A stretch of 64,000 bases of DNA from an uncultured Succinivibrionaceae bacterium (GTDB lineage: Bacteria > Pseudomonadota > Gammaproteobacteria > Enterobacterales > Succinivibrionaceae). The notes beneath the pieces were generated by a model. It did no database searches. It was not told the DNA's origin and saw nothing but the letters and a program-made list of their open reading frames with translations. The position numbers were made by a program, and so were the translations under genes. This document shows positions 4,273-34,881 of this stretch, piece after piece; position 1 is the stretch's first letter, and each line of letters starts with the position of its first letter. The DNA is taken from positions 730 through 64,729 of the forward strand of contig CALXNU010000003.1 of assembly GCA_944389835.1 (NCBI GenBank). Direction: 5' to 3'.

Positions 4273-5226
4273 TTAGCAATAACCATAGCCCATTAAACGC
4301 TGATAACGCTCTTCAATTAATCTCTCACGTGGCATACCACGCAAAACTTGAAGATCTTCTAAAATTCTTTGCTTCAAGTTTAAGGCAGTCTCATCGTAAT
4401 CACGATGTGCGCCACCTAATGGCTCTGACACCACATTATCAATAAGACCTAAAGATTTAATCTTATTGGCAGTAATATTCATCGCCTCAGCTGCAAGTGG
4501 GGCTTTTTCAGCGCTCTTCCACAAAATTGAGGCGCAACCTTCAGGGGAGATCACAGAATATGTGGCATATTGCAACATATTTACGCGATCACCAACACCA
4601 ATTGCTAGTGCGCCACCTGAGCCACCTTCACCAATTACGGTGCAAACAATTGGCACTTTAAGCTCAGACATTAACTTTAAGCTCTCGGCAATGGCACCTG
4701 CCTGTGATCTTTCCTCAGCGCCAACTCCTGGGTAAGCACCTGGGGTGTCAATAAAGGTGATAATTGGCAAATCAAAGCGCTCGGCAAGCTTCATTAAACG
4801 CATAGCTTTGCGATAGCCTTCAGGGCGTGGCATACCAAAGTTTCTTAAAGTTCTCTCTTTTACATCACGTCCTTTTTGATGACCAATTACCATGACCGGT
4901 AATCCCTCAAGACGTGCTAAACCTCCGACAATGGCTTTATCATCGGCAAAGGCACGATCTCCTGAAAGCTCATGAAAATCGGTAAACATGCGCTCAATAT
5001 AATCTAAGCTGTATGGGCGCATCGGATGGCGGGAGAGCTGTGAAATCTGCCAGGAGCTTAAGGAAGAATAAATCTTCTTGGTAAGCTCTAAATTCTTTTT
5101 CTCAAGCTGAGCTAATTCCTTGGATAAATCAACATCAGAAGTGCTGGCGCTTAATCTTTTTAGCTCCTCAATGTGAGCAAGTAAATCAGCAATCGGTTGT
5201 TCAAAATCCAGGTAATTGATATTCAT
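4273..5226 (-). CDS. accA: Acetyl-CoA carboxylase carboxyltransferase alpha subunit
   Basis: 317 aa with full-length similarity to AccA, including [16 protein letters not shown]. Confidence 0.95.
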
Positions 5227-5298: not shown

Positions 5299-6234
5299 TC
5301 ACAAAGCATGATCTGCCTCTCTTCTTTTTAAAAGCTCACGCACCGGGCGATAGCTTTTACGATAACAAGGCAAAATCGGCAAATGCTCTAAAGCCTCTAA
5401 GTGAGCTTTAGTAGGATAACCTTTGTGTTTGGCAAAACCGTATTGAGGGTAGAGCTTATCTAATTCATAAAGCTCCCTGTCCCGCTCAACTTTAGCTAAA
5501 ATTGAGGCTGCGGCAATCTCTTCAACTTTTGCATCTCCCTTAACTACTGCCTCACAGGCTAGAGGAAGATTAGGCGGGACTTTATTGCCATCTACTAATA
5601 ATAAATTACATTCAACGCCCATAGCAAAGTAAGCGCGGCGCATCGCCTCTAAGGCGGCATGTAAAATATTTAAATTATCAATTTCCTCGGGACTACACTT
5701 GCCAATCCCAAAGGCAAGAGCCTTCTCTTTAATCTCAATTTCCAAAGCCTCACGCTTTTTTTCAGTAAGCTTTTTAGAATCATTTAAGCCTAAGATGGGA
5801 TTTTTAGGATCTAAAAGCACACAGGCTGCCACCACATTGCCCATTAAAGGCCCGCGCCCTGCCTCATCAGCCCCACAAACTAAATAAAGGCTTTTATCTA
5901 CCGGATAGATATAATCAAAGCTTGTGGGCTTGAAGGTAACTTTGCGTGAAGGCTTTTTTCCCTGTTCTTTAAATGAGGGGCCCTGATCCTCAAAAGATAA
6001 ATTATTTAAGTCCTCGTTTAAATTATCTTTTACCCCTTCGCTTAAAGCTTGAGATGCTTGTAAGTCTTGAGTCTTAATCTTGGACTTAACTTTACTTTTC
6101 CCCTCAAGCTTTTGAGGATTAGTTAAGCTTACTAACTTTGAGACTTGCGTAAAATCTTGATTGTCCTCTGTTAGCTCCTGCCCCTCTAAAGGCGCAAATA
6201 GATCTAAACTTTCAAGTGTCTTTTTCTTAACCAT
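5299..6234 (-). CDS. rnhB: Ribonuclease HII with ~110-aa low-complexity N-terminal extension
   Basis: The RNase HII core starts at ..[23 protein letters not shown] (about residue 120). No in-frame ATG, GTG or TTG lies closer to the core, so the extension appears to be translated. Confidence 0.88.
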
Positions 6235-20506: not shown

Positions 20507-20590
20507 TTAATGATTCCTCAATATTAAGGGTTATGCCTCCACTGTTGCGCATTCTCAACTCTATAAGAGCACCCTAAGAATTGCGTTAAT
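20507..20590 (-). promoter_or_regulatory. rpsB 5' leader with long-range AGGGU/ACCCU pairing (possible S2 autoregulatory leader)
   Basis: The minus strand reads UUAGGGUGCUCUUAUAGAGUUGAGAAUGCGCAACAGUGGAGGCAUAACCCUUAAUAUUGAGGAAUCAUUAAAUG. AGGGU pairs with ACCCU and encloses a CUCU-UAU-AGAG hairpin. The S2-leader identity is an inference. Confidence 0.3.
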
Positions 20591-20794
20591 CAAACAGTGT
20601 GTGTTTTCTAAAAAAATGACTAATAAAAGCCTTTAGTTAAAGGCGGCCTATTTTATCATGCTTTGGCGAGAATCTGCCGTTTTCGCTTAAAAAAATTCAA
20701 GAGGTACGTTATCTAAAAGGATAAGAGAGAAGAAAACTAATAATGCCTTCTAAGCTTAAGTCTTAAGGTGAGATAGTACTTATTGGAAAAGTTA

Positions 20795-24112: not shown

Positions 24113-24142
24113 TTTTGACCGTCAGTTTAGCTGACGGTTAAG

Positions 24143-24217
24143 TCCCCATAGTTAAATGGATATAACAAGCCCCTCCTAAGGGCTAGTTGCAGGTTCGATT
24201 CCTGCTGGGGGCGCCAC
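24143..24217 (+). tRNA. argW: tRNA-Arg (anticodon CCU)
   Basis: I folded a 75-nt cloverleaf by hand. The acceptor stem is GTCCCCA/TGGGGGC, the D arm GTTA..TAAC, the anticodon stem AGCCC/GGGCT with loop CTCCTAA, and the T arm GCAGG-TTCGATT-CCTGC, with an encoded CCA. It is near-identical to my memory of E. coli argW. Confidence 0.93.
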
Positions 24218-24363: not shown

Positions 24364-24987
24364 ATGAGACTTACTATGGACAAATCTAAAATTAAAAAAT
24401 CTTCAAAAGAAAAAGAACCAAATTATAAGTTTCTCTATGAGATCATAAATGATGACTGGCTTGCCAATATTGATTTTACTGAAAAACCTCAATACATCAA
24501 ATTGCCTAAGACGTCCATTAAACACTACATAAGTCGCACAGTAGCTTTAAATATTCACACCAGCAATTTTGGTGGAGATTGGCATTTTTTCGACACCTTT
24601 TTTTGGCCTGGCTATGAAAATGATTACGAAAAAATTAAAGATAAACTAAATTTTCTTTGCGGTGAGGGTGAAGAGTGCAATACAAATTCTATTTTAGGAA
24701 AAAAGGGAATTCTAGAAAGATCTGAGCTTGTAAAAAGTCAAGGTTTAACCTTTGAAGGGTCGAAGGTATACGTTGCCACGTATGCACGTGCTATTGCTGA
24801 TATGGTTTTGTTTTTTACTAAGCAAGGTATCCCAAGAAATATTACCCTTGATGAGTGGACACCAAGACAAAAAGAGCAAAAGATAATTTTAGAATATTTA
24901 AATATAGCCCTTAAAAGCGACAAAATTGACGCGGCTCAAAAAGCAAGGATCAAAGAATGGATCAAAACTCAAAAACCGATTTCTTAA
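24364..24987 (+). CDS. Hypothetical protein (ORFan, no recognisable family)
   Basis: 207-aa ORF with the SD-like AGGGGA immediately upstream. It has a K-rich N-terminus and W/F/Y-rich middle (GGDWHFFDTFFWPGYENDYE). I recognise no motif. Confidence 0.5.
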   Translation: MRLTMDKSKIKKSSKEKEPNYKFLYEIINDDWLANIDFTEKPQYIKLPKTSIKHYISRTVALNIHTSNFGGDWHFFDTFFWPGYENDYEKIKDKLNFLCGEGEECNTNSILGKKGILERSELVKSQGLTFEGSKVYVATYARAIADMVLFFTKQGIPRNITLDEWTPRQKEQKIILEYLNIALKSDKIDAAQKARIKEWIKTQKPIS

Positions 24988-25111
24988 AACGCCCTTTAAG
25001 AGTTATACTGACTCAAACAATAACAAAGGATTAATAGACTTATAGCAAAGCTTTTACTAAGCTTAAATCTTAACTTAAACTAAGTTTTGCAATCATATAG
25101 GGGATGACTTT

Positions 25112-26869
25112 TTGCAAGACTTTAAAAATTTGCTCAACAAACTGCCAATTGCTGACTCATCTTTTTTTAATCTGCGCATGAAAAATGCCATCTATGTTGA
25201 CAAGACAAAATTTGTCTACAATCTTGCAATAAACGATCAACCTCGTGTTCTTACTCGCCCGCGCCGTTTTGGCAAAAGCACTTTACTCTCTACCCTAAAA
25301 GAGCTTTTTTTACATGGTGTGAAACCTTTTATAGACCCCGATACAGGCAAACTTCACGAATCGTGTTTTAAAGGCCTTGCTATTGAAAATTTGTGGACTG
25401 ATCCTGAAGAATATCTCGTACTACAGCTTGATTTTCGTGATCTTAATGAACAATGCTCAAGCATAAAAGACTTTGAGCTTAACCTTCTGGATGAGCTTGA
25501 TGCTTTTGCCCAAGAACATCATCTTACTTTATGTAAAGAGGCACTAAGTCTTAATTCTAAATTCCAAGATCTTCTTTTAAAACTTCCAAAGCACAAGCTT
25601 GTGCTACTTATTGATGAGTATGATGCCCCATTTCTAGCCTGTCTAAATAATCAAGATAAGCTACAACAAACAACACTTTGGATGCAAAATTTTTATAGCG
25701 TCATTAAAAGTTCTCAAGAAAAATTTCGTTGTATTTTTGCAGTTGGGATTACACCACTGCAAAGTCTAAAGCTTAGTACTGCGGTAAGTAACTTCTCTGA
25801 CATTTCTTTTGACCACAATTTTGCCACCTGTTGCGGTTTCACACACCAAGAACTTAAGCAATATTTTAAGAACCATTTGCTTTTCGCTACAGCAAAAAAC
25901 TCTCACTGTACTCTAGATACTGTAACCTCTGAGCAAATTGAGCATTTTCTAGATGATCTAGCACTTTGGTATGACGGCTTTTGTTTTGATCAAAAACAAA
26001 GCAACAAAGTTTTTTCTACCTGGTCAGTTTTACGCTTTTTCAGTGATGAAGATGCGCTACTGCAACCATATTGGATGGCAGAAAGAAGCGTGTTAATGCC
26101 CTCTCTACTTAAAAATACTATTAAGCGCCTAAATTTACCTAAACTTTGGCCTACACTTGCATCAGGTGAGTTTAAATTAAGCTTTGCTGAATTTATGGAA
26201 GCAGGTTTATTTTCTCCACAAGAATCAAATCATTATGCTCTTTTTTACCAGACGGGATACTTAACTCTAACTCGTCCTTTTTTAAACGGCGGAAAAATCT
26301 CTTTAAGGCTTACTAATCAAGAAACCCGGATCGCTTTTGCTACCTTTTTAGCTGAGCGTTTGTACGCAACTTCTGACAACAATACCCCGCAACTTATGGG
26401 TCCTGATTATGCAGCAAAAGCACAACAGGTACTTGCAAGCTTAGATGCAAACAAGATTAAGCAACTTTTTAGCAGTCTTTTTGCAACTCTTCCATATCAG
26501 CACTATCCTGTCGTCAATGAGAGTATAGTTTCAGGGTTATTGGCTTTTTATTTAATAGGAGCAGGTTTAGCACCACACTGTGAGGTGAGTGAAAACTTGG
26601 GAAGAGCAGATGCTGAAGTTAACTTGCCTCAAAGCAATATTACTTTGGTTTTTGAGTACAAATACGAACAAAGCGCAGATCCTGCCATCTTAGATACCAA
26701 ACTTCAGGAGGCGATAGCTAAGATAAAGAGCCGTGATTATGGCAATCACGCAGGCAATTTAGCGAAAATTGCTCGCTTTGCCTTAGTGTTTTGCGGCAAT
26801 GAGAAAGTACGAAACATCGCGCGTCTTTCTTTAGTTGACGTGCTAAACAAAAATATCGTCAAAAATTAA
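25112..26869 (+). CDS. AAA-ATPase-like plus PD-(D/E)xK (PDDEXK_9-type) family protein, paralog 1
   Basis: 585 aa with a TTG start after the AGGGGA SD. The N-terminal RPRRFGKSTLLSTLKELF P-loop block and hhhhDEYD Walker B (LLIDEYD) are present. The C-terminal GRADAEVNL...LVFEYKY gives the D..ExK nuclease motif. Confidence 0.8.
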   Translation: MQDFKNLLNKLPIADSSFFNLRMKNAIYVDKTKFVYNLAINDQPRVLTRPRRFGKSTLLSTLKELFLHGVKPFIDPDTGKLHESCFKGLAIENLWTDPEEYLVLQLDFRDLNEQCSSIKDFELNLLDELDAFAQEHHLTLCKEALSLNSKFQDLLLKLPKHKLVLLIDEYDAPFLACLNNQDKLQQTTLWMQNFYSVIKSSQEKFRCIFAVGITPLQSLKLSTAVSNFSDISFDHNFATCCGFTHQELKQYFKNHLLFATAKNSHCTLDTVTSEQIEHFLDDLALWYDGFCFDQKQSNKVFSTWSVLRFFSDEDALLQPYWMAERSVLMPSLLKNTIKRLNLPKLWPTLASGEFKLSFAEFMEAGLFSPQESNHYALFYQTGYLTLTRPFLNGGKISLRLTNQETRIAFATFLAERLYATSDNNTPQLMGPDYAAKAQQVLASLDANKIKQLFSSLFATLPYQHYPVVNESIVSGLLAFYLIGAGLAPHCEVSENLGRADAEVNLPQSNITLVFEYKYEQSADPAILDTKLQEAIAKIKSRDYGNHAGNLAKIARFALVFCGNEKVRNIARLSLVDVLNKNIVKN

Positions 26870-27033
26870 AGATCTTTTCTTAAAGCATAAGCTTTAAAAT
26901 CGCGTCTTTTAGCCGAAAATAAAAGGTAAGATAAAGATCTTTTCCGCAATCCGTGCATGTTAAGTATCTTTTTTGTCCAAGCTTAAGCTACAATTAGCTT
27001 GGGTTGTGGTGTTTTTGGCAGAAAAAAATAAAA

Positions 27034-30000
27034 ATGAGTGAGATTAAGCTTCAAACTACTAATGATATTAAGTTAGATGAAAAGCGTCAGCAAGAGGCTC
27101 AAAAGAATGCCCCTGAAAGTGCACGCTTCAATCGTCATGCTACCTCATCTTTAATTGAGGTTCTCTCCTCGCAACAAGGCATGGTCAATGAATCCTTAAA
27201 TCGCACTTTAGGCAAGCTCAACACTGCCTTAGATCATCTTTTAAAAGGACAAAGTGATAACTTAGCCCAAGGTGAGGACGCTCAAAGCTTACAAAAGCTC
27301 TCTTATGATGTCATCTCTCGTGATGTTAAATTACAAGAGCGTGTAGCCCAAGCTTTATCATCGCCAAATCGCCTCATTAGATCACGTGACGCCCAAGACT
27401 CACTTAAAAACTCTTTTGATAATTTGCCAAAAGCCATCAAAGAAGACTCAACAGGCCCTCTTCTTTCCCGTGCCGTGCTTGAAAGTTTAGTCACTCTTGC
27501 AGATAAAGATGCCATTGGTGCAGGACTTGAGCGTGATTTGAGCTTAAAGAAAGTCTATATTAGTGACTCCCGCCCGCAAGGTCGTGCCACTTTAGCCTCA
27601 GGGCGAATTTTAAATGCATCTTTGGCCTATATTGAAAGCAATCAACCTAAAGTTTTAGCAACTTTGCAAGAGTCAAGTGAGGAAAATACTTCCCAGAAAG
27701 CTTCTACTCAAAACACGCAAAATCCTCAAGATGAAGATTTAAACCTTGAGCTTAAGCGCTCTAAGATGAGTACTGCGCAAGTTATGACGGAGTATTTAAA
27801 AAAGGCACTTGAGGAATTCCCTGAGGATTCAACCTATCTTGATATCTTCAAGAAAAATGCCCAAGGAATAGATGGCAAAGACAATCGCAATTCTCAAAGA
27901 ATTCGCGAAGTCATTTACAATGCCTCACAAATGGCTAAAACGCGCAATCTCTACCCAGGCGCTCCTGATCCTACAGTTGAAACTGCCGAGGAGTCTTTTG
28001 CGGTAAATGATGAGAATACTTTTAATAAAAATGCCTTAAATTTAAGTGCCGATCCTGATGCGCGCTCTTATATTGATGATCCTAAGGATAAAACTAATGT
28101 TGAAGGCTCACGCATGAGCTTAGCTGAGCTTTCAGCACGCGCTGCCAAACTTCAAATGCAATTTACGCGCGAAAGACAGCGCATGGTTCAAGAAGGACAA
28201 TTACCCGATCCTGCCACCATGCCCCCTATTGATGAGAGTATCCCGCAAGGTGATGGCTCACGCAATTATCATCAATCAACATTGCGCATTCCAAGAAGCT
28301 CTGTGGCAGCTTTAGCTCAAAATCCTTTAGTTCAGGCCTCCATGCCACCTAAAGCGCAAAATGATGTGACTCAATCCTTAGAGATTGAAGCCTCCAAACA
28401 AGAGCTTTTAAAAACCCAGGATGAGCTTTTAAAACTTAAAGCTGAGCTTGCCAAAGTTCAGGCTGAAGCCTTGCAATCTGCTAAAGAGACGGTAAATGCT
28501 CAACTTCAAACTCAAAAAGAGCTTAAAGCTCAAGCTGAGGCTTGGTATCAGCGCATTCAAGAGGCAGGTGCTATGGCCAAAAGCACTATTGATGCGCTAA
28601 AACAAGCGGCCAACTCAGCACTTAAAGTGACCGAGCACATCCCTCAAGAGACAAAAGCATCCCAAACTCTTGAGCCTTTCGTGCAAGCTCAAGTGTCAGA
28701 CGATCTTGCACTTAAAGAAAACCTAAGCAGCCCCTCTTTAAAGCTTCAAGCTAAAGAAGAGGCTCAAGTTCAGACAAGAGATCCTAAGCTTTACTCACAA
28801 GTAAATCTAAATCAAACTCAAGAGCCTTTAAAAAATCCTCAAGAAGGCTCTCAAGAGATTGTTTTTGAGCAAAAGCCACAAAGTGCTTACCTTAACTTAC
28901 AAGCTCAAAGTGACAGTGAAAATTTTGAGCTTAAAGCCCCTCAAGAGAGCATTACTCAAGAGCTTTTAGATAAGAGTCAGCAACAAAGTACCGTCTTTAC
29001 TCAAGATGGGGACGTATCTTATCCACAAGAGACTAATCTTGATCTTAAAGCTCCAACAGATAAGGCACAATTTGCCCCACAAAGTGCTACTTTAAATGAC
29101 AGTGCAGTAACTGAAAAAGCCCCCAAGGCTCCTGCAAATCCTACGGCACCTTTTGATGATCTTAATTTTGACAGCAGTGAAAACTCACTTGAAGAGCGTT
29201 TATATCGCTATGTAGGTCAAGCTAAGATCTCGGATACTGCAGATGAAATCAAAATTGATACTGCTTTAAAGCTTGATAGCAAAGAGCTTAATGAAAATAA
29301 GCCTGCCTTAGAGCAAGATGGTATAAAGCAAGTTTCAAACAAAGAGCTTACTTTAAGCTCTCAAGATGAGGCTTTAAAAGATGAATTTGAGGTTATAAAA
29401 GCTGATGAAACAAAGGCCTCAGACCAAGAAGCAAATATAGCTTATAAGAGTCAACGTGAGATTCAATCAAGCTTAGAGGAGCAAAAAGAGGATTTAAGCT
29501 TTAAAAACTTACAAGATAAAGCTCAAAGCTTTAAACAAAAGCTTGAGGAACCAAGACCTGTAAGTTTAGAAAAGAATGCAGTGGCAAGTGAAGCTAAAGA
29601 AATTGTAAAGCCTGAAGTTTCTGATGCTAAACCTCAAGCCCCTGCTCAAACTCAAGAGAGCAAAGCTCAAGTTGAAAATCAGCCTAAACAGCCTGAGACT
29701 TCAGCTCAAGAGCAAAAGCTTTACAGTGAAACTTTAAAAGAGCAAAAACTTAAAGCCCAAGAGATAGCAGAAAGTGCCAAGAAAGCATCTCAAGAGGCCT
29801 CAAAACAAGCCCTTGCAGATGAGGCTCAAGTAAAAGAGGAGAGTCTTCAAAATAAGGCTTATGATAAAGCTTTATTGCAAGCTCAAGAGGAAGCACAAAG
29901 TGTGGCTTTAAATCAGGCTCAAGTGCAAGATGAGCTTGTAAAGACCCAAGAGATACAAGTTCAAGATAAGCTCCAAACTCAAACTAAGCTTGAAAATAAA

Positions 30001-30774
30001 GAAGAGCGCGTAGAGTTTAAAGAACAGCAAGCGCAAAAAGCCCAAGAGCTTGAAACTATTCAAACTCAAAATACTAAAGATAAGGTAAGTGAGAGTGAGG
30101 CGCAAAAAAATTCTGCAACCACAACTGCTCAAAGTACTCAAGAGGAAAGCTTAGAGAATGATCATGTAGAGTTTAAGATCCCAAATCTAAACCCAGATCT
30201 TAATCTTTCGGTTGCAAATCCTAATGACACCCAAGATGAAAGTGCCAATGAGGAGTTAAATGTAAGCGATGAGCAAGCACATTTAATGGCCTCTTTAGCT
30301 CAAGCCTCAAAGCAAAATCAAGAATTAGTAAGTCTTGATAACAATGAGGATACTTTTGAGTTAAATCGCCCCACTAATCCTCATTTAAATGTCAACTTAG
30401 ACATTGATGATCCGCTTGAAAGTGGTAGTGCTGAAGAGTTTTCTAAGCTTTATCAAAATATTGCGCAAAAACAAAGTGCAAGCGAAGTAGATGCAGAAGA
30501 ACTTCAACAAAATCCTGCACCAAAGGAGAGTAAAGGGTCTGAAATTAAGATCAATCCTCAAGACGTGGCAAGCTTAATGAGCGTAAAACCTAGTGACGAT
30601 CTTGAAGATGATGATACCCTACAAGGGATTAAGACCCCACTTGCCGATGAGAGCACTTTAGAAGAGGAGATTAAAGCGCCAACTGGTCAGGCTGCCCAAG
30701 TAAGCGATGAAACCTTAAGTGAAAATGAGGTTAAACCAGGCTTCTTCTCAAGGCTTGCCTCTTTTTTTCGCTAA
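27034..30774 (+). CDS. Giant acidic Q/E/K/A-rich low-complexity protein with C-terminal amphipathic helix
   Basis: The ORF is open from 27004 (TTG); the first ATG at 27034 gives MSEIKLQ... (1246 aa). About 230 N-terminal residues have ordinary composition, followed by about 1000 aa of Q/E/K/A/L/S-rich sequence with coiled-coil-like runs (ELLKTQDELLKLKAELAKVQAEALQ). It ends ..KPGFFSRLASFFR. Confidence 0.75.
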   Translation: MSEIKLQTTNDIKLDEKRQQEAQKNAPESARFNRHATSSLIEVLSSQQGMVNESLNRTLGKLNTALDHLLKGQSDNLAQGEDAQSLQKLSYDVISRDVKLQERVAQALSSPNRLIRSRDAQDSLKNSFDNLPKAIKEDSTGPLLSRAVLESLVTLADKDAIGAGLERDLSLKKVYISDSRPQGRATLASGRILNASLAYIESNQPKVLATLQESSEENTSQKASTQNTQNPQDEDLNLELKRSKMSTAQVMTEYLKKALEEFPEDSTYLDIFKKNAQGIDGKDNRNSQRIREVIYNASQMAKTRNLYPGAPDPTVETAEESFAVNDENTFNKNALNLSADPDARSYIDDPKDKTNVEGSRMSLAELSARAAKLQMQFTRERQRMVQEGQLPDPATMPPIDESIPQGDGSRNYHQSTLRIPRSSVAALAQNPLVQASMPPKAQNDVTQSLEIEASKQELLKTQDELLKLKAELAKVQAEALQSAKETVNAQLQTQKELKAQAEAWYQRIQEAGAMAKSTIDALKQAANSALKVTEHIPQETKASQTLEPFVQAQVSDDLALKENLSSPSLKLQAKEEAQVQTRDPKLYSQVNLNQTQEPLKNPQEGSQEIVFEQKPQSAYLNLQAQSDSENFELKAPQESITQELLDKSQQQSTVFTQDGDVSYPQETNLDLKAPTDKAQFAPQSATLNDSAVTEKAPKAPANPTAPFDDLNFDSSENSLEERLYRYVGQAKISDTADEIKIDTALKLDSKELNENKPALEQDGIKQVSNKELTLSSQDEALKDEFEVIKADETKASDQEANIAYKSQREIQSSLEEQKEDLSFKNLQDKAQSFKQKLEEPRPVSLEKNAVASEAKEIVKPEVSDAKPQAPAQTQESKAQVENQPKQPETSAQEQKLYSETLKEQKLKAQEIAESAKKASQEASKQALADEAQVKEESLQNKAYDKALLQAQEEAQSVALNQAQVQDELVKTQEIQVQDKLQTQTKLENKEERVEFKEQQAQKAQELETIQTQNTKDKVSESEAQKNSATTTAQSTQEESLENDHVEFKIPNLNPDLNLSVANPNDTQDESANEELNVSDEQAHLMASLAQASKQNQELVSLDNNEDTFELNRPTNPHLNVNLDIDDPLESGSAEEFSKLYQNIAQKQSASEVDAEELQQNPAPKESKGSEIKINPQDVASLMSVKPSDDLEDDDTLQGIKTPLADESTLEEEIKAPTGQAAQVSDETLSENEVKPGFFSRLASFFR
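30762..30768 (+). other. T7 run forming U_UUU_UUU at the last codons of the giant ORF (candidate -1 frameshift site or homopolymer indel site)
   Basis: The codons are GCC TCT TTT TTT CGC TAA. The downstream Flg_hook ORF is in the -1 frame, which is open from 30735. Confidence 0.3.
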
Positions 30775-30800
30775 GTAACGAAAGCCACCCTCAAAGTGGG

Positions 30801-31628
30801 GTGGTGGCACCCTCTACCCCAAATAATGGGCCGATTAAGCCCAATCTTACGGCCTTTTCTGATCTTCTAAGCTCCTTAAATAAAGTGGCCGTAGAAGTTG
30901 AAGATCCGTATTTAAAAGAAAAGGCCCAAAGTTTAATTAATGAGTTAAAAAATCCGGTTAATAATCTTCACACTGTAAATCAATACTTAAGCTTTGTCAC
31001 AGGACCTCTCTCCCCTTCCTCACCATTGGCTATTGCTTTGCATCAATGGGCTTTTATGCTCCTTTGCATTAGATTTGAGCAATTAGGCAAGGAAATAGGA
31101 AGCTTTCTTAAAAATAAAATCAAAGATCCTGAAAGTTTAAGATCAGAGGTTATAAGCTCCAAAAAAGTAAGAGTCGATCCTAAAACTACTACAAGTTTAC
31201 TTGATAGCACGATTGCCCAAGTCGATAGGCTCAAAGAAGAATGTCAGGCTATTGGCAACCTCCCTATCCCAAGGTTTATTCCCATGCCTCCGATGTACGA
31301 TGAAGGACATGACGGGGCTTTGTTTTTAAAGCGCGATGAGGATGATCCAAATAAAACGTGGCATTTGCAATTTTGCTTTGATTTAAAAGATTTGGGCCCC
31401 TTGGAAATTCAAGCGCAAGCTCAATTTCCAAGTATAAAATTGCGCTTTACCTCACCATCTAAGGAGGTTTTAGATCTAACTCAGGCCATGTTGCCACTTT
31501 TAAAAGAGCGTTTACAAGAAATTGGAGTTACCACGCGCTTATCGCTATTAAGACAAGCGCCTATTACCTTTAAAGAAAATCTAAAGGGTCCAATTAGAAA
31601 AGAATCAGGCTTAGATCTTGAGGTGTAA
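30801..31628 (+). CDS. FliK-like protein with C-terminal Flg_hook/T3S4-type domain
   Basis: 275 aa. The C-terminal WHLQFCFDLKDLGPLEIQAQAQFPSIKLRFTSPSKEVLDLTQAMLPLLKERLQEIGV fits the FliK C-terminal pattern (L.L.P.ELG.v.v......l.f......l...l..L...L...G). The start is uncertain: GTG with no clear SD, and the first Met is residue 86. Confidence 0.65.
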   Translation: MVAPSTPNNGPIKPNLTAFSDLLSSLNKVAVEVEDPYLKEKAQSLINELKNPVNNLHTVNQYLSFVTGPLSPSSPLAIALHQWAFMLLCIRFEQLGKEIGSFLKNKIKDPESLRSEVISSKKVRVDPKTTTSLLDSTIAQVDRLKEECQAIGNLPIPRFIPMPPMYDEGHDGALFLKRDEDDPNKTWHLQFCFDLKDLGPLEIQAQAQFPSIKLRFTSPSKEVLDLTQAMLPLLKERLQEIGVTTRLSLLRQAPITFKENLKGPIRKESGLDLEV

Positions 31629-31630
31629 TT

Positions 31631-31957
31631 ATGGATCGTCGCTATAAAAATGTTACTGAGGCTGTCGCTTTATCCTATGATGAAGACAATCCTAAAAGCG
31701 CCCCTTTTGTGGCGGCTAAAGGTGATTTTGAAAGAGCTCAGGCAATTGTGGAGATGGCAGAGGAATTAGGTCTTTACATTCATCAAGATGAAAAGCTTTT
31801 GCGGGAGCTTAAATCTTTAAAAGAAGGTGAGGAAGTGCCAAGCCAGCTTTTTGGAGTGATTGCCACAATTTTAGCTTTCAGCTATATCCTGCAAGGTAAA
31901 ACCCCAAAAACTTGGAGAAGGCGCGATGGCACTCGCGCCATTAACCTTAAAGCCTAA
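31631..31957 (+). CDS. Stand-alone FlhB/YscU C-terminal (post-cleavage) domain protein
   Basis: 108 aa. AVALSYDEDNPKSAPFVAAKGDFERAQAIVEMAEELGLYIHQDEKLLRELK..EVPSQLFGVIATILAFSY aligns with the FlhB segment following NPTH. A GAGGTG SD lies upstream, and the start is 2 nt after the preceding stop. Confidence 0.8.
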   Translation: MDRRYKNVTEAVALSYDEDNPKSAPFVAAKGDFERAQAIVEMAEELGLYIHQDEKLLRELKSLKEGEEVPSQLFGVIATILAFSYILQGKTPKTWRRRDGTRAINLKA

Positions 31958-34881
31958 AGCCCCAACAACATGCGCTCAAAATCGTTAACGGAATTTGAGT
32001 TATTTGAAGGTGCAGGAGCTGGTGCTGGTGCAGGAGCTGGACGTAAATCCTCACCTGTACCTTGGGACTCATAAGTATTTTCCTGAGTACTAGTTGGCGC
32101 AAAGCCTGCACTGTTATATGGCAGATCTAAGTTATAGCACGGGCGGATCCTCGCAATCTTATCCTCACGCACCGGGAATAAGGACAAGCCCTCTTCCTGA
32201 CATTTATCCTGCACAATCTCACCTTGTTTATCAAAGTTTACAAACTTAATGCCTTCTGGGCGGGTTAATTCCAAAGAATTTACCCCACGCTCTTTAAGAT
32301 AGGCTGAATAAACACGCAGAGGACCTGATGATCCATAAAGCCCTGTAGGTTTGAAGACATCAAAGCCCACCCAGGTGGTCACTAATTCATCTGAGTCCAT
32401 ACCAATGGCCCAAGTGTCACGACTGTCATTGGTAGTACCAGTCTTTGAGGCAATCTTTACTCCTGGGAATGAAGCTTGTAAGCGCCTTCCGGTACCACTG
32501 TGTGTAACCTCAGTCATCGCATATAAGGTAAGATAGGTATCTTTAGGATCTAAAGTTCTCTCCCCTGCCATAGCTGTCCTGTCATAGACAATCTCACCGT
32601 TTTTTACCACCGTGCGCAAAGTAGTTAAGTTTTGATAGACACCATCAGTTGCCAAGGAAGCATACATGGCATTTAACTCATATGGCGTACACTCTAAAGT
32701 ACCTAAAAGCAAGGAAGGATATAGTGGAATATCCCTGTCAACACCCACCTTTTTAAAGGTCTCCACGACATTAGCAAGGCCTACACTCATACCAATTCTC
32801 ACGGTTGGTACATTCAAAGAGCGCGCCATGGCACTTAATACCGTAATTGGACCTCTAAATTTCTTATCATCATTTTTAGGCGACCAAAGTTTACCATCTG
32901 CTAAACGTACTGTAACTGCTTTATCTTCGACAATTGATCCTAAATGATAGCCACGATTGAAAGCTGTTAAATAGACAAAGGGCTTTGCCAAAGAGCCAAT
33001 TTGACGGCGACCTTCAATCACGCGATTAAAGCCATCGTATTTTGGCGTGCGACTTCCCACCACTGCTGAAACTTCAGCCGTGCGCCAGGAGCTTACTAAC
33101 ATCGCAGCCTCTAAACCTTCTAACTTACGGCTTTTTTCAATGGCATCAAGCTCGGTGGCCACAGCCTTTTCAGCGGCTGCTTGTGATTGAGGATCTAAGC
33201 TTGTAAAGATGCGAATGCCATTACCTGAGAGGAAATCAGGTCCAAAGCGTGAGGAGATCTCATACTTTAAAAGTCCCATGAAAGCAGGCGTCTTACTATA
33301 GTTCATAGAGCCTCGTGGGATCACATTTAAAGGACGGGCTGCATATTGTGAAAATTCAGCTTCACTTATATGCCCTTGATTTCTTAGAACTCCTAAAACC
33401 GTATTGCGCCGCTCTAGCGCATTTTCAGGATGACGCCACGGATCATAATAAGAAGGTCCTTTAATTAAACCTACTAAAAGGGCCATCTGATCTAAAGATA
33501 ATTCAGACACCGGCACGCCAAAATAGAAGTAGGAGGCCAAACCAAAGCCATAAATTCCCGCATTGCCATTTTGCCCCAAGTAAATTTCATTCATATAGGC
33601 TTCTAAGATCTGATCTTTGGTGTAGCGATGATCCATGATCATGGCCATGATGAGCTCTTTGAACTTGCGGGTATAGCTTTTTTCGGAGGTTAAAAAGTAG
33701 TTTTTCACCAATTGTTGGGTGATGGTACTGCCACCTTCCACAACGCGCCCTGCCATAAAATTGCGCACAAAGGCGCGGGCGATGGCAAAGACATTAATAC
33801 CTATGTGAGAGTAGAATCTTCTATCTTCAATCTCAAGTAAAGTGGTAATTAAACTTTGCGGCACTTCATCTAAGGTAATAAAAATTCTATCTTCCTTAGG
33901 ATCGATACGATTGATTCTATCTAAAAGCACTGGATCCATGCGCACATAGGAAAGCTCTTCCATGGTGTCAGCATTAATTAAGCGTGAGATACGATTTCCA
34001 TCAAACTCAACTAATAAAGATAATCTATCTTCCTCACCATCAGGGAAGCTAAAAGGTCTTTTAATCACCACAATGCGTGAGGTTTTTTCATTTAACGCAT
34101 ACTCACCAGGTCTTTTTGGCGTTGAAGTTTTGCGATATTTTAAAAGCTCAAGCTCATAGCACATTTGCTTAAAAGAAAGCCTCTGCTCTGGATAAAGCTC
34201 CAAAGGCCTTGAGTAGACTACCGCAGGTAATACCCACTTATCATCCACCTCAAACTCTTCCATCACCACCGCATCAAAATAGATAAAAAAGCCGCCTAGG
34301 ATAATAACTCCGACGATGGTAAGTTTTAGGGCAAACACGGAAAGCTTATGGCGAAGTCTTGCAAACCAACTTTTAGGGGGCTCTTTTTTGGGCTCTTTTT
34401 TATCTAAACTCTCTTGTAGATCTTGTGGGTCTTGTAAGGAACTTTCCTTATCAAAATCTTTCTTTAAGCCTTTCTCTTCTGCCTCTTCCTGAGAACTATC
34501 CCTCTGATTTAAGAATTCTTGAGCTTGACTTTCTTGTGGAGTAGAAATCTTATCTAGCTCTTGTGGTGCTTTACTTTCTTGAGTACTTAAGCTTTCCTCT
34601 TTGCCCTCTTTGTCTTTACTCTTTTTATCTTGTAAAGACTTAGCCTGTGACAAAGTAGCCCCTAAATCTTCCTTTTCTTCCTGACGCTCTTTTAAAATAT
34701 CTTGGGAAAAAGAGGCCATCGCCTCATCTGAAGCTTTTCCTTCATCCTTTCTTTTACTTTCTTTAACTTTTTTATTTTTTAAATTAAAAGGCACATCGTC
34801 ATCATCTTTTGGCGAAAAAGCGAGGATCTCTAATGGATCATTGCCCAAATTTAAATCATCATCGGAACGTTTGTTGGTCAT
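31954..34881 (-). CDS. mrcB: Penicillin-binding protein 1B (bifunctional transglycosylase/transpeptidase) with extended tails
   Basis: 975 aa. It has a UB2H-like segment after the TM helix (RPGEYALNEKTSRIVVIKRPFSFPDGEE), the GT51 motif RFYSHIGIN..EGGSTITQQLVKN, and a transpeptidase region with SLAKP and KTGTT. The cytoplasmic N-tail is about 180 aa and a (PA)5-6 tract lies near the C-terminus. Confidence 0.88.
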   Translation of the reverse strand: MTNKRSDDDLNLGNDPLEILAFSPKDDDDVPFNLKNKKVKESKRKDEGKASDEAMASFSQDILKERQEEKEDLGATLSQAKSLQDKKSKDKEGKEESLSTQESKAPQELDKISTPQESQAQEFLNQRDSSQEEAEEKGLKKDFDKESSLQDPQDLQESLDKKEPKKEPPKSWFARLRHKLSVFALKLTIVGVIILGGFFIYFDAVVMEEFEVDDKWVLPAVVYSRPLELYPEQRLSFKQMCYELELLKYRKTSTPKRPGEYALNEKTSRIVVIKRPFSFPDGEEDRLSLLVEFDGNRISRLINADTMEELSYVRMDPVLLDRINRIDPKEDRIFITLDEVPQSLITTLLEIEDRRFYSHIGINVFAIARAFVRNFMAGRVVEGGSTITQQLVKNYFLTSEKSYTRKFKELIMAMIMDHRYTKDQILEAYMNEIYLGQNGNAGIYGFGLASYFYFGVPVSELSLDQMALLVGLIKGPSYYDPWRHPENALERRNTVLGVLRNQGHISEAEFSQYAARPLNVIPRGSMNYSKTPAFMGLLKYEISSRFGPDFLSGNGIRIFTSLDPQSQAAAEKAVATELDAIEKSRKLEGLEAAMLVSSWRTAEVSAVVGSRTPKYDGFNRVIEGRRQIGSLAKPFVYLTAFNRGYHLGSIVEDKAVTVRLADGKLWSPKNDDKKFRGPITVLSAMARSLNVPTVRIGMSVGLANVVETFKKVGVDRDIPLYPSLLLGTLECTPYELNAMYASLATDGVYQNLTTLRTVVKNGEIVYDRTAMAGERTLDPKDTYLTLYAMTEVTHSGTGRRLQASFPGVKIASKTGTTNDSRDTWAIGMDSDELVTTWVGFDVFKPTGLYGSSGPLRVYSAYLKERGVNSLELTRPEGIKFVNFDKQGEIVQDKCQEEGLSLFPVREDKIARIRPCYNLDLPYNSAGFAPTSTQENTYESQGTGEDLRPAPAPAPAPAPSNNSNSVNDFERMLLGL
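32008..32040 (-). repeat. (CCW GCW)n hexanucleotide repeat encoding PAPAPAPAPAP in mrcB
   Basis: The plus strand reads aggtgcaggagctggtgctggtgcaggagctgg. On the minus strand it translates as RPAPAPAPAPAPS. Confidence 0.9.

Follow-up and report, generated by a model that had tools for sequence, protein, structure and literature searches.

A candidate programmed −1 frameshift joining the two halves of a fliK2-like flagellar gene in a clade of Succinivibrionaceae

A 64,000-nucleotide stretch of DNA from an uncultured Succinivibrionaceae bacterium (assembly GCA_944389835.1, contig CALXNU010000003.1, positions 730 to 64,729 of the forward strand), referred to here as the window, carries a giant open reading frame (ORF) that is directly followed, in the −1 frame, by a shorter ORF with a Flg_hook domain. 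Comparison with related genomes indicates that these two ORFs are the halves of one fliK2-like gene and that the ancestral state was a single giant gene. We propose, with a probability of roughly 0.6, that the full-length protein is still made through programmed −1 frameshifting, probably by the ribosome, on a U_UUU_UUU heptamer at 30762–30768 within a fliK2-flhX operon. The site would represent a new and well-supported candidate for a programmed −1 frameshift, with an atypical downstream element.

The giant ORF, which makes up the N-terminal part of the gene (N-part, forward strand, 0 frame), ends with GCC(30757) TCT TTT TTT CGC TAA, its stop codon occupying positions 30772–30774. Its start is TTG 27004 in the mechanical ORF list and ATG 27034 in an independent gene call on an identical contig; from the latter, it spans 27034–30774 and encodes 1246 amino acids (aa). 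The run of seven T's (T7) at 30762–30768 lies in X_XXY_YYZ phase, with T30762 being the third base of TCT and the codons TTT and TTT following. The Flg_hook ORF, or C-part, stands in the −1 frame relative to the giant ORF, which is open from 30735 onward. The listed start of this ORF is GTG 30801, with a second GTG at 30804, its first internal methionine is residue 86, and it stops at 31628. After the proposed shift, reading would resume on T30768 and continue through a linker into the Flg_hook/T3S4-like domain (30768–31628, forward strand), which was recognized by Pfam, profile comparison, and structure modeling. The predicted fusion has 1531 aa when counted from ATG 27034 and 1541 aa from TTG 27004. 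A preliminary description, made from the letters of the window alone, had given the end of the giant ORF, the coordinates of the T-run, the open −1 frame, the GTG start, and the first methionine of the second ORF, and all of these were confirmed on the sequence. The heptamer by itself is no more than what chance would provide in a window with a G+C content (GC) of 40%, as 11 A7/T7 runs occur within ORFs over 56 kb of coding sequence and 4 of them are in X_XXY_YYZ phase. Its significance rests on comparative data.

For this comparison, the hypothetical junction-spanning protein was used as the database query. It matched single proteins of 438–531 aa in relatives, in which ..GLLRRLASFF(G/S).. 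is followed by the FliK C-domain in the same chain, while the giant ORF of the window ends in ..GFFSRLASFFR before its stop codon. A locus scan using one genome per species yielded 42 loci, nearly all of them labelled Succinivibrionaceae or Aeromonadales, with Anaerobiospirillum, Succinivibrio, Succinatimonas, and Avisuccinivibrio among the genera. A single ORF of 1000 to over 2255 aa holds both the motif and the FliK C-domain in about 30 further species of Succinivibrionaceae. The motif can be written family-wide as G-[FL]-[FL]-x-[RK]-[LI]-A-[SA]-[FLI]-F and is located about 100 aa before the core of the FliK C-domain in these fused relatives; its codons in the window, encoding GFFSRLASFF, occupy 30739–30768 on the forward strand. 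None of the fused relatives (about 30 species) carries a T7 at the motif, where the usual codons are TCG TTC TTT GGC or TCA ATT TTT GGT. Furthermore, the first ~400 aa of the giant ORF are 34–38% identical to the N-termini of the fused single ORFs (tblastn, E 1e-40 to 1e-64), and the C-part aligns with the C-terminal 290–440 aa of the fused homologues. The motif being in frame with the C-domain, together with the N-terminal match, shows that the gene was ancestrally one giant unit.

The split arrangement is shared by five species of widely differing base composition: the window species (GC 40%), Candidatus Avisuccinivibrio pullicola (loci L001–L006 and L009, GC 57%), the metagenome-assembled genome SRP141132_co5_279 (L007, GC 46%), GCA_964651505.1 (L056–L058, GC 53%), and a Logan contig from SRR17218451 (L059, GC 56%). 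All five show TCT TTT TTT C(G/A)N TAA with the T-run in U_UUU_UUU phase (computed from the ORF starts), the 0-frame stop exactly one codon past the heptamer, and the C-part in the −1 frame. Each of them keeps the two halves intact, the first with 966–1246 aa and the second with about 290 aa. The five group as one clade when a neighbour-joining tree is built from the C-domain, so the split arose once. T7 is present in every assembly examined, namely four of the window species (three of them from other samples), seven contigs of A. pullicola, three of the L056 type, and one each of L059 and L007. Due to this identity among independent assemblies from different samples of five species, a sequencing error is excluded as the source of the split. 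A scan of metagenome contigs with the split-clade alignment returned three loci, all 41% identical, which were taken no further, and added no split species. The comparison of orthologous loci, which the preliminary description had named as a check, thus finds the two frames fused and without the T-run in about 30 relatives and the T-run kept throughout the split clade, in support of its idea that a frameshift fuses the giant ORF to the Flg_hook ORF.

Conservation at the junction goes beyond what the protein requires. Over the 1217 ungapped codons in a codon alignment of three of the hypothetical fusions, the three species share the third base at 13.6% of positions gene-wide, and at 24% of those where the amino acid is identical. 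In contrast, a 20-codon window at the junction has 11 of 20 third positions identical, and all 15 of the 15 top-scoring windows of third-position conservation fall at the junction. Several of the codons kept there are rare ones, with AGG making up 4% of arginine codons and GGG 7.8% of glycine codons in the window, and TCT 9.9% of serine codons in L001. The site is conserved in this manner despite GC values of 40–57% and differing codon usage among the split species.

Downstream of the stop codon, a conserved G+C-rich hairpin is predicted by RNAfold at 30784–30808 (forward strand), with the core CCACCCU (30785–30791)/GGGGUGG (30798–30804). It builds on the inverted repeat CCACCC (30785–30790)/GGGTGG (30799–30804) that had been pointed out in the preliminary description 16 nucleotides (nt) past the T-run; the repeat is present as described, and RNAfold extends it to 7–9 base pairs with about −15 kcal/mol, an alternative 9-bp register reaching from G30784 to C30808. 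Both GTG codons (30801 and 30804) lie within this hairpin. This hairpin is peculiar to the split clade, whose five members have predicted energies between −15 and −25 kcal/mol, while the corresponding segment of the fused species has a median of about −7. The arms read CCACCC(C/U)/GGGGUGG in three split species and CCUCCCC/GGGGA(C)GG in the other two, so that three species have A-U and two have U-A as the third pair of the stem, amounting to one compensatory swap. The loops vary in both sequence and length (about 4–8 nt), and the codon phase of the hairpin is shifted by 1 nt between the subclades, encoding S-H-P..G-V-V in one and A-S-P..G-T-A in the other. The stability, the compensatory pair, the varied loops, and the shifted codon phase indicate that selection acts on the hairpin as RNA and not on the encoded peptide. 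Base pairs were taken from the RNAfold predictions, since MAFFT misaligns the 3′ arm due to a bulged C in L056 and L059. Owing to the high G+C content of the segment, its z-scores (mononucleotide shuffles) reach significance in some species only, and the argument is based on the absolute stability of the hairpin, its position, and the one covarying pair. Measured from the 0-frame stop, its 5′ edge lies 9–10 nt downstream, at about the place that the front of a terminating ribosome would occupy. An atypical stimulator of frameshifting, a block to re-initiation, or some other role are all candidates for its function. A search of Rfam at the junction gave chance-level matches only, with no known frameshift element or other family. 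Upstream of the T-run, the sequence AAGG at 30750–30753 (forward strand), which includes the rare arginine codon AGG and lies 8 nt before the heptamer, is a candidate internal Shine-Dalgarno (SD)-like stimulator.

On the basis of these features, the following course of events can be proposed. In the ancestor of this small clade of Succinivibrionaceae, a −1 frameshift would have become fixed at the SFF codons of the conserved motif. During translation, two tRNA-Phe would slip back by one base in tandem, giving ..RLASFF-SLSNESHPQSGVVAPS.. and a predicted junction peptide of ASFFSLSNESHPQSGVVAPSTPNNGPIK. Ribosomes that do not slip would read CGC and stop at TAA, releasing a 1246-aa product without the switch domain, while the predicted fusion of about 1530 aa would combine the conserved N-domain, the low-complexity ‘ruler’ region, the GFFSRLASFF motif, and the T3S4/Flg_hook domain. 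In this manner one mRNA, probably sigma-28-dependent and also carrying flhX, would supply two proteins in a fixed ratio. Heptamers of the type H_HH.U_UU.Y are among the most efficient in E. coli (Sharma 2014, PMC4066793).

The alternative that the two parts became independent proteins after the ancestral frameshift, with the C-part being translated by terminating ribosomes that melt the hairpin and re-initiate (at GTG 30801 or 30804 in the window), appears doubtful to us. Gene callers do annotate proteins of 270–276 aa from a GTG within the hairpin's 3′ arm in three species (window, L001, and L007), where the stop lies 26 nt upstream of that GTG, and a hairpin containing a GTG and a G-run is the classical layout for translational coupling, which may operate in these three species; short stand-alone forms of 438–449 aa are also called in other lineages. 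However, typical genes of the window have an AGGAG-like SD sequence 5–10 nt upstream, and flhX has GAGGTG with an ATG. The only purine-rich element at the GTGs of the C-part is the GGGG at 30798–30801, which abuts or overlaps them within the hairpin and is too close. The earlier remark that no AGGAG-like SD sequence is seen for the second ORF is nearly right, but passes over this G-run. Furthermore, the GTG position is ACG in L056 and L059, which have no ATG, GTG, or TTG in the −1 frame for more than 35 codons from T7. The first candidate start (TTG/ATG in L056, CTG/ATG in L059) falls inside the conserved NAFNTL-M-GAL block of the domain, lacks an SD sequence, and stands more than 100 nt beyond the 0-frame stop. 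Across the clade, the C-part is, on this comparison, without a conserved start. Orthologues with an SD sequence and ATG of their own and with variable spacing, which the preliminary description had set against frameshifting, are the opposite of what was found, in that phase, stop, −1 relation, and hairpin distance are conserved while the GTG is kept in only three of the five species. Separate genes would also leave unexplained the invariant TCT TTT TTT with its phase across 40–57% GC, the peak of synonymous-site conservation at the junction, and the two species that lack a start. A T3S4 domain without an N-terminal export signal is not expected to be secreted, and the C-part alone would be without the N-terminal export signal of FliK.

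Transcriptional slippage, in which RNA polymerase adds one U at T7 in some transcripts, is not probable in our view; it would yield the same protein as ribosomal slippage, and the two are indistinguishable from sequence. A homopolymer is its natural substrate, UUUUUUU is under-represented in all three frames of E. coli genes in a manner partly attributed to it (PMC4066793), and the Shigella type III secretion genes spa13, spa33, mxiA, and mxiE make use of it (PMC5009743). In addition, a weak hairpin at 30737–30757 directly precedes the U-run, in a terminator-like layout. Against it stands the length of the run, which is exactly 7 in all five species, while selection against slippage-prone runs is typically evident at 9, or at 8 in some genomes (PMC1088944). 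A T10 would leave the frame relation unchanged and be far more slippery, but was never seen in the five split species, and the conserved hairpin lies downstream, where it is unable to act on a polymerase at the T-run. Hairpin-stimulated slippage is reported to yield deletions (Penno et al. 2015, PNAS), and such deletions would give the wrong frame unless two U's were lost. Ribosomal slippage is favoured over this route by the run of exactly 7 in tandem phase in five of five species, by the efficiency of the heptamer type in E. coli, and by the 8–9 or more bases that a polymerase usually needs. Phase variation through homopolymer tracts is known for flagellar genes of Campylobacter and Helicobacter, and this precedent, together with Succinatimonas-like contigs that differ by A6/A7 and T5/T6 a few codons from the same motif, raises the alternative of a contingency tract, in which slippage between T7 and T8 in the DNA would turn production of the full-length protein on or off among the cells of a population. 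We consider it very improbable, since seven bases are short for an efficient contingency tract, all assemblies examined of the five species are in the same ‘off’ T7 state (as consensus assemblies, in which minor subpopulations are invisible), and the junction-spanning protein search returned no fused variant at high identity. An artefact or decay, that is, a homopolymer sequencing error or a pseudogene being lost, is the least credible explanation and is in effect refuted. It could draw on the error-prone nature of homopolymers and on a TGA codon in the N-part of L055, but it is at odds with the identical site in independent assemblies from different samples of five species, and with ORFs of 966–1246 aa and about 290 aa that stay open with their protein blocks kept, although only 13.6% of third positions are identical.

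Several observations nevertheless weigh against programmed ribosomal frameshifting. Since the five split species belong to one clade, their conservation does not count as independent events. The core of the hairpin starts 15–16 nt past the T-run, or 14–15 nt when the outer G-C pair is included, while stimulatory structures normally start 5–8 nt past the heptamer (PMC4066793); the split-clade hairpin is thus found at about twice the classical distance, and extensions of the lower stem that would shorten the spacer are seen only in L001 and L007. The SD-like element is A/GAGG in three of the five split species and AAGA in the other two, and the AGA in L056 and L059 weakens the idea of a stimulatory AGG. 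Moreover, U_UUU_UUU is much less shifty than A_AAA_AAG in E. coli (Atkins 2016, PMC5009743). At the level of strains, L055 (ENA ERZ28613589), an assembly of the window species that is otherwise 99.98% identical, carries TGA in place of TTA in the N-part at the position corresponding to window 29873 (L055 position 4999; codon 957 counted from TTG 27004), which splits the N-part into 946 and 299 aa and may be a strain-level inactivation. Succinatimonas-like Logan contigs likewise show strain-level homopolymer frameshifts a few codons after the same SIF motif. More specifically, GGTAAAAAAACAG contains an A7 in the fused reference L020 (5809–5890) and an A6 in L060 and L062 (around 5900–5960), and L061 (around 4440–4500) has T6 instead of T5 near the SIF motif. 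At this shared hot spot, the variants are either frameshifts that arose independently in single strains or errors of assembly. Together with the nonsense codon of L055, they suggest that the gene may be dispensable or often inactivated in some strains. Homopolymers in this region are probably mutational hot spots, which would also be the probable origin of the T7 frameshift. Finally, while the comparison shows that the two parts descend from one gene, that the site is conserved and constrained at the nucleotide level, and that the C-part has no conserved start, the slippage itself, its ribosomal nature, its efficiency, the role of the hairpin 14–16 nt downstream, and any function of the short product are inferences.

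The identity of the gene is supported by its C-part, which matches Pfam Flg_hook (PF02120) with E 1.3e-9 and 38.2 bits against a cut-off of 29.8, and PDB entry 2RRL at E 0.01 in a profile comparison. In the structure model, the C-terminal core reaches values of the predicted local distance difference test (pLDDT) of 70–86, with only residues ~190–265 being reliable, and the top specific Foldseek matches are 5CUK (the PscP switch domain) and 2RRL, with weak E-values. Sequence searches of the PDB with the single proteins returned nothing useful. The N-part consists of a conserved N-terminal region of ~400 aa and a long low-complexity middle rich in Q, E, and K; it has no Pfam or NCBIfam match. 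Directly downstream lies flhX (31631–31957, forward strand), which is preceded by a GAGGTG SD sequence, starts with ATG, and encodes a 108-aa homologue of the FlhB C-terminal domain, matching positions 262–334 of 335 of Pfam Bac_export_2; its best NCBIfam match is TIGR00789 (flhB_rel), below the cut-off of that model. The order of a Flg_hook gene followed by a homologue of the FlhB C-domain is present in all related loci. As judged by domain content and gene order, the gene is a fliK2-like FliK paralogue paired with flhX and distinguished by a very large N-terminal extension. The canonical FliK architecture anticipated in the preliminary description is borne out for the C-terminal Flg_hook/T3S4 domain and the long low-complexity region, but the gene is a fliK2-like paralogue and not demonstrably the main hook-length gene. 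FliK2-like genes of 449 aa that hold both the motif and the C-domain are found in L063 (1209–2558) and L064 (27–1376), where they adjoin a longer flhX of 162 aa. There is no giant N-part upstream of the gene in L063, and the contig of L064 begins only 26 nt before it; these forms are either naturally short or stem from rearranged contigs.

A sigma-28 (FliA)-like promoter motif, TAAA-N15-GCCGAAAA, is located at 26895–26919 (forward strand), about 115–140 nt upstream of the giant ORF, and is identified by motif match only. Motifs resembling TAAAG-N14/15-GCCGATAA can be read by eye at the same relative place in the upstream sequences of L001, L007, L056, and L059, while the strict motif pattern flagged only the window and, with CCGATA, L001.

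The proposed site can be set beside several known systems. E. coli dnaX and the orfAB genes of IS3/IS911 likewise have an in-phase X_XXY_YYZ heptamer, a 0-frame stop soon after it, and a −1 frame that leads into a functional C-terminal domain, and OrfA/OrfAB also give a short and a long product from one mRNA, as proposed for the fliK2-like gene. The likeness extends to a G+C-rich hairpin downstream and, in three of the five split species, to a possible SD-like element upstream. In contrast, these systems use A_AAA_AAG rather than U_UUU_UUU, their hairpin follows after 5–8 nt rather than 14–16 nt, and the SD-like element is not universal in the split clade. Another parallel is Yersinia YopN-TyeA (PMC5009743), a type III secretion regulator in which a frameshift near the end of the first ORF makes some fusion protein. 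There, however, the ribosome shifts by +1 and not by −1, the separate proteins are each known to function and have their own starts, and the system is an injectisome, not a flagellar paralogue. Related systems reportedly have YopN-TyeA as a single polypeptide, which is divided in one lineage. The Shigella genes spa13, spa33, mxiA, and mxiE share with the fliK2 case homopolymeric A/T runs in type III secretion genes that give rise to extended or truncated products. Their runs are said to measure 8–10 nt, that of mxiE being T9. They differ in that RNA polymerase slips, while the run of the window clade is fixed at 7 in the phase for tandem slippage.

With regard to gene content, the closest comparison is the P. 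putida fliK2-flhX operon (PP_4328-PP_4329), which is FliA-dependent (bioRxiv 10.1101/2021.08.29.457346). Both have a Flg_hook-domain gene immediately upstream of flhX and a sigma-28-type promoter motif. The Succinivibrionaceae protein, however, has 1000 to over 2200 aa and is frameshift-split in this clade, and it is likened to P. putida FliK2 by domain and gene order. The phage tail assembly chaperones G/GT resemble the site in having a heptamer a few codons before the 0-frame stop, a minor C-extended product, and a system built around a length-determining protein. They are unrelated proteins, though, with a G_GGA_AAG-type site, and their shifted product is a chaperone for the ruler, while here it would be the ruler-like protein itself.

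To our knowledge, few chromosomal bacterial genes rely on programmed −1 frameshifting, with dnaX, copA, and cdd making up the known handful. A literature search that included recoding reviews found no frameshifting described for a flagellar or FliK-type gene. The fliK2-like gene provides a natural control in this respect, as about 30 fused relatives can be set against a recoded clade of five species and the recoding signals become readable by comparison. It also offers an entry point to the function of the FliK2-FlhX pair and to the question of whether a hairpin 14–16 nt from a slippery site can influence recoding. For annotation, the arrangement has the consequence that pipelines split the gene in split-clade genomes into a ‘hypothetical protein’ and a short ‘FliK’. 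A more far-reaching suggestion, which we put forward as speculative and rather unlikely, is that the conserved cassette of U_UUU_UUU, one sense codon, TAA, and a hairpin 9–10 nt past the stop constitutes a new kind of −1 signal. Its structure would exert no effect on a ribosome that has the heptamer in its P and A sites, but would act via a terminating or queued ribosome or as a block to re-initiation. It would set a fixed ratio of switch-less ‘ruler-only’ to full-length FliK2, and jointly with FlhX this ratio would tune a checkpoint in flagellar type III secretion. Bypassing (hopping) was rejected as a mechanism, as the junction sequences contain no matching landing codon for CGC or CGG.

The surroundings of the fliK2-like gene in the window include further flagellar genes, namely flgT, flgO, an LPP20-like gene that is possibly flgP, and flgN. 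A tRNA-Arg(CCU) gene at 24142–24216 (forward strand) lies between flgT on one side and a 207-aa ORF with an AAA-ATPase/PD-(D/E)XK gene (24364–26869) on the other. This tRNA reads AGG and is encoded 2.8 kb upstream, but its proximity was dismissed as a coincidence, as none of the seven related loci scanned (four split and three fused) contains it. In A. pullicola, a similar ATPase gene is found elsewhere, after gluQ; this placement and the absence of the tRNA from the seven loci suggest a small insertion next to tRNA-Arg(CCU) in the window. On the other side of the operon, a convergent PBP1B-like gene (31954–34881, reverse strand) overlaps the stop of flhX by 4 nt; its product has a long acidic low-complexity N-terminal extension and ends with a PAPAPAPAPAPS repeat. 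Further away, Rfam identifies a t44 RNA at 20530–20621 (reverse strand) before rpsB-tsf, an ordinary ribosomal-protein leader. Within the first 1.2 kb of the window, ahead of the first long ORF, a C9 run occupies 153–161 and five A7–A9 runs are clustered at 724–1147.

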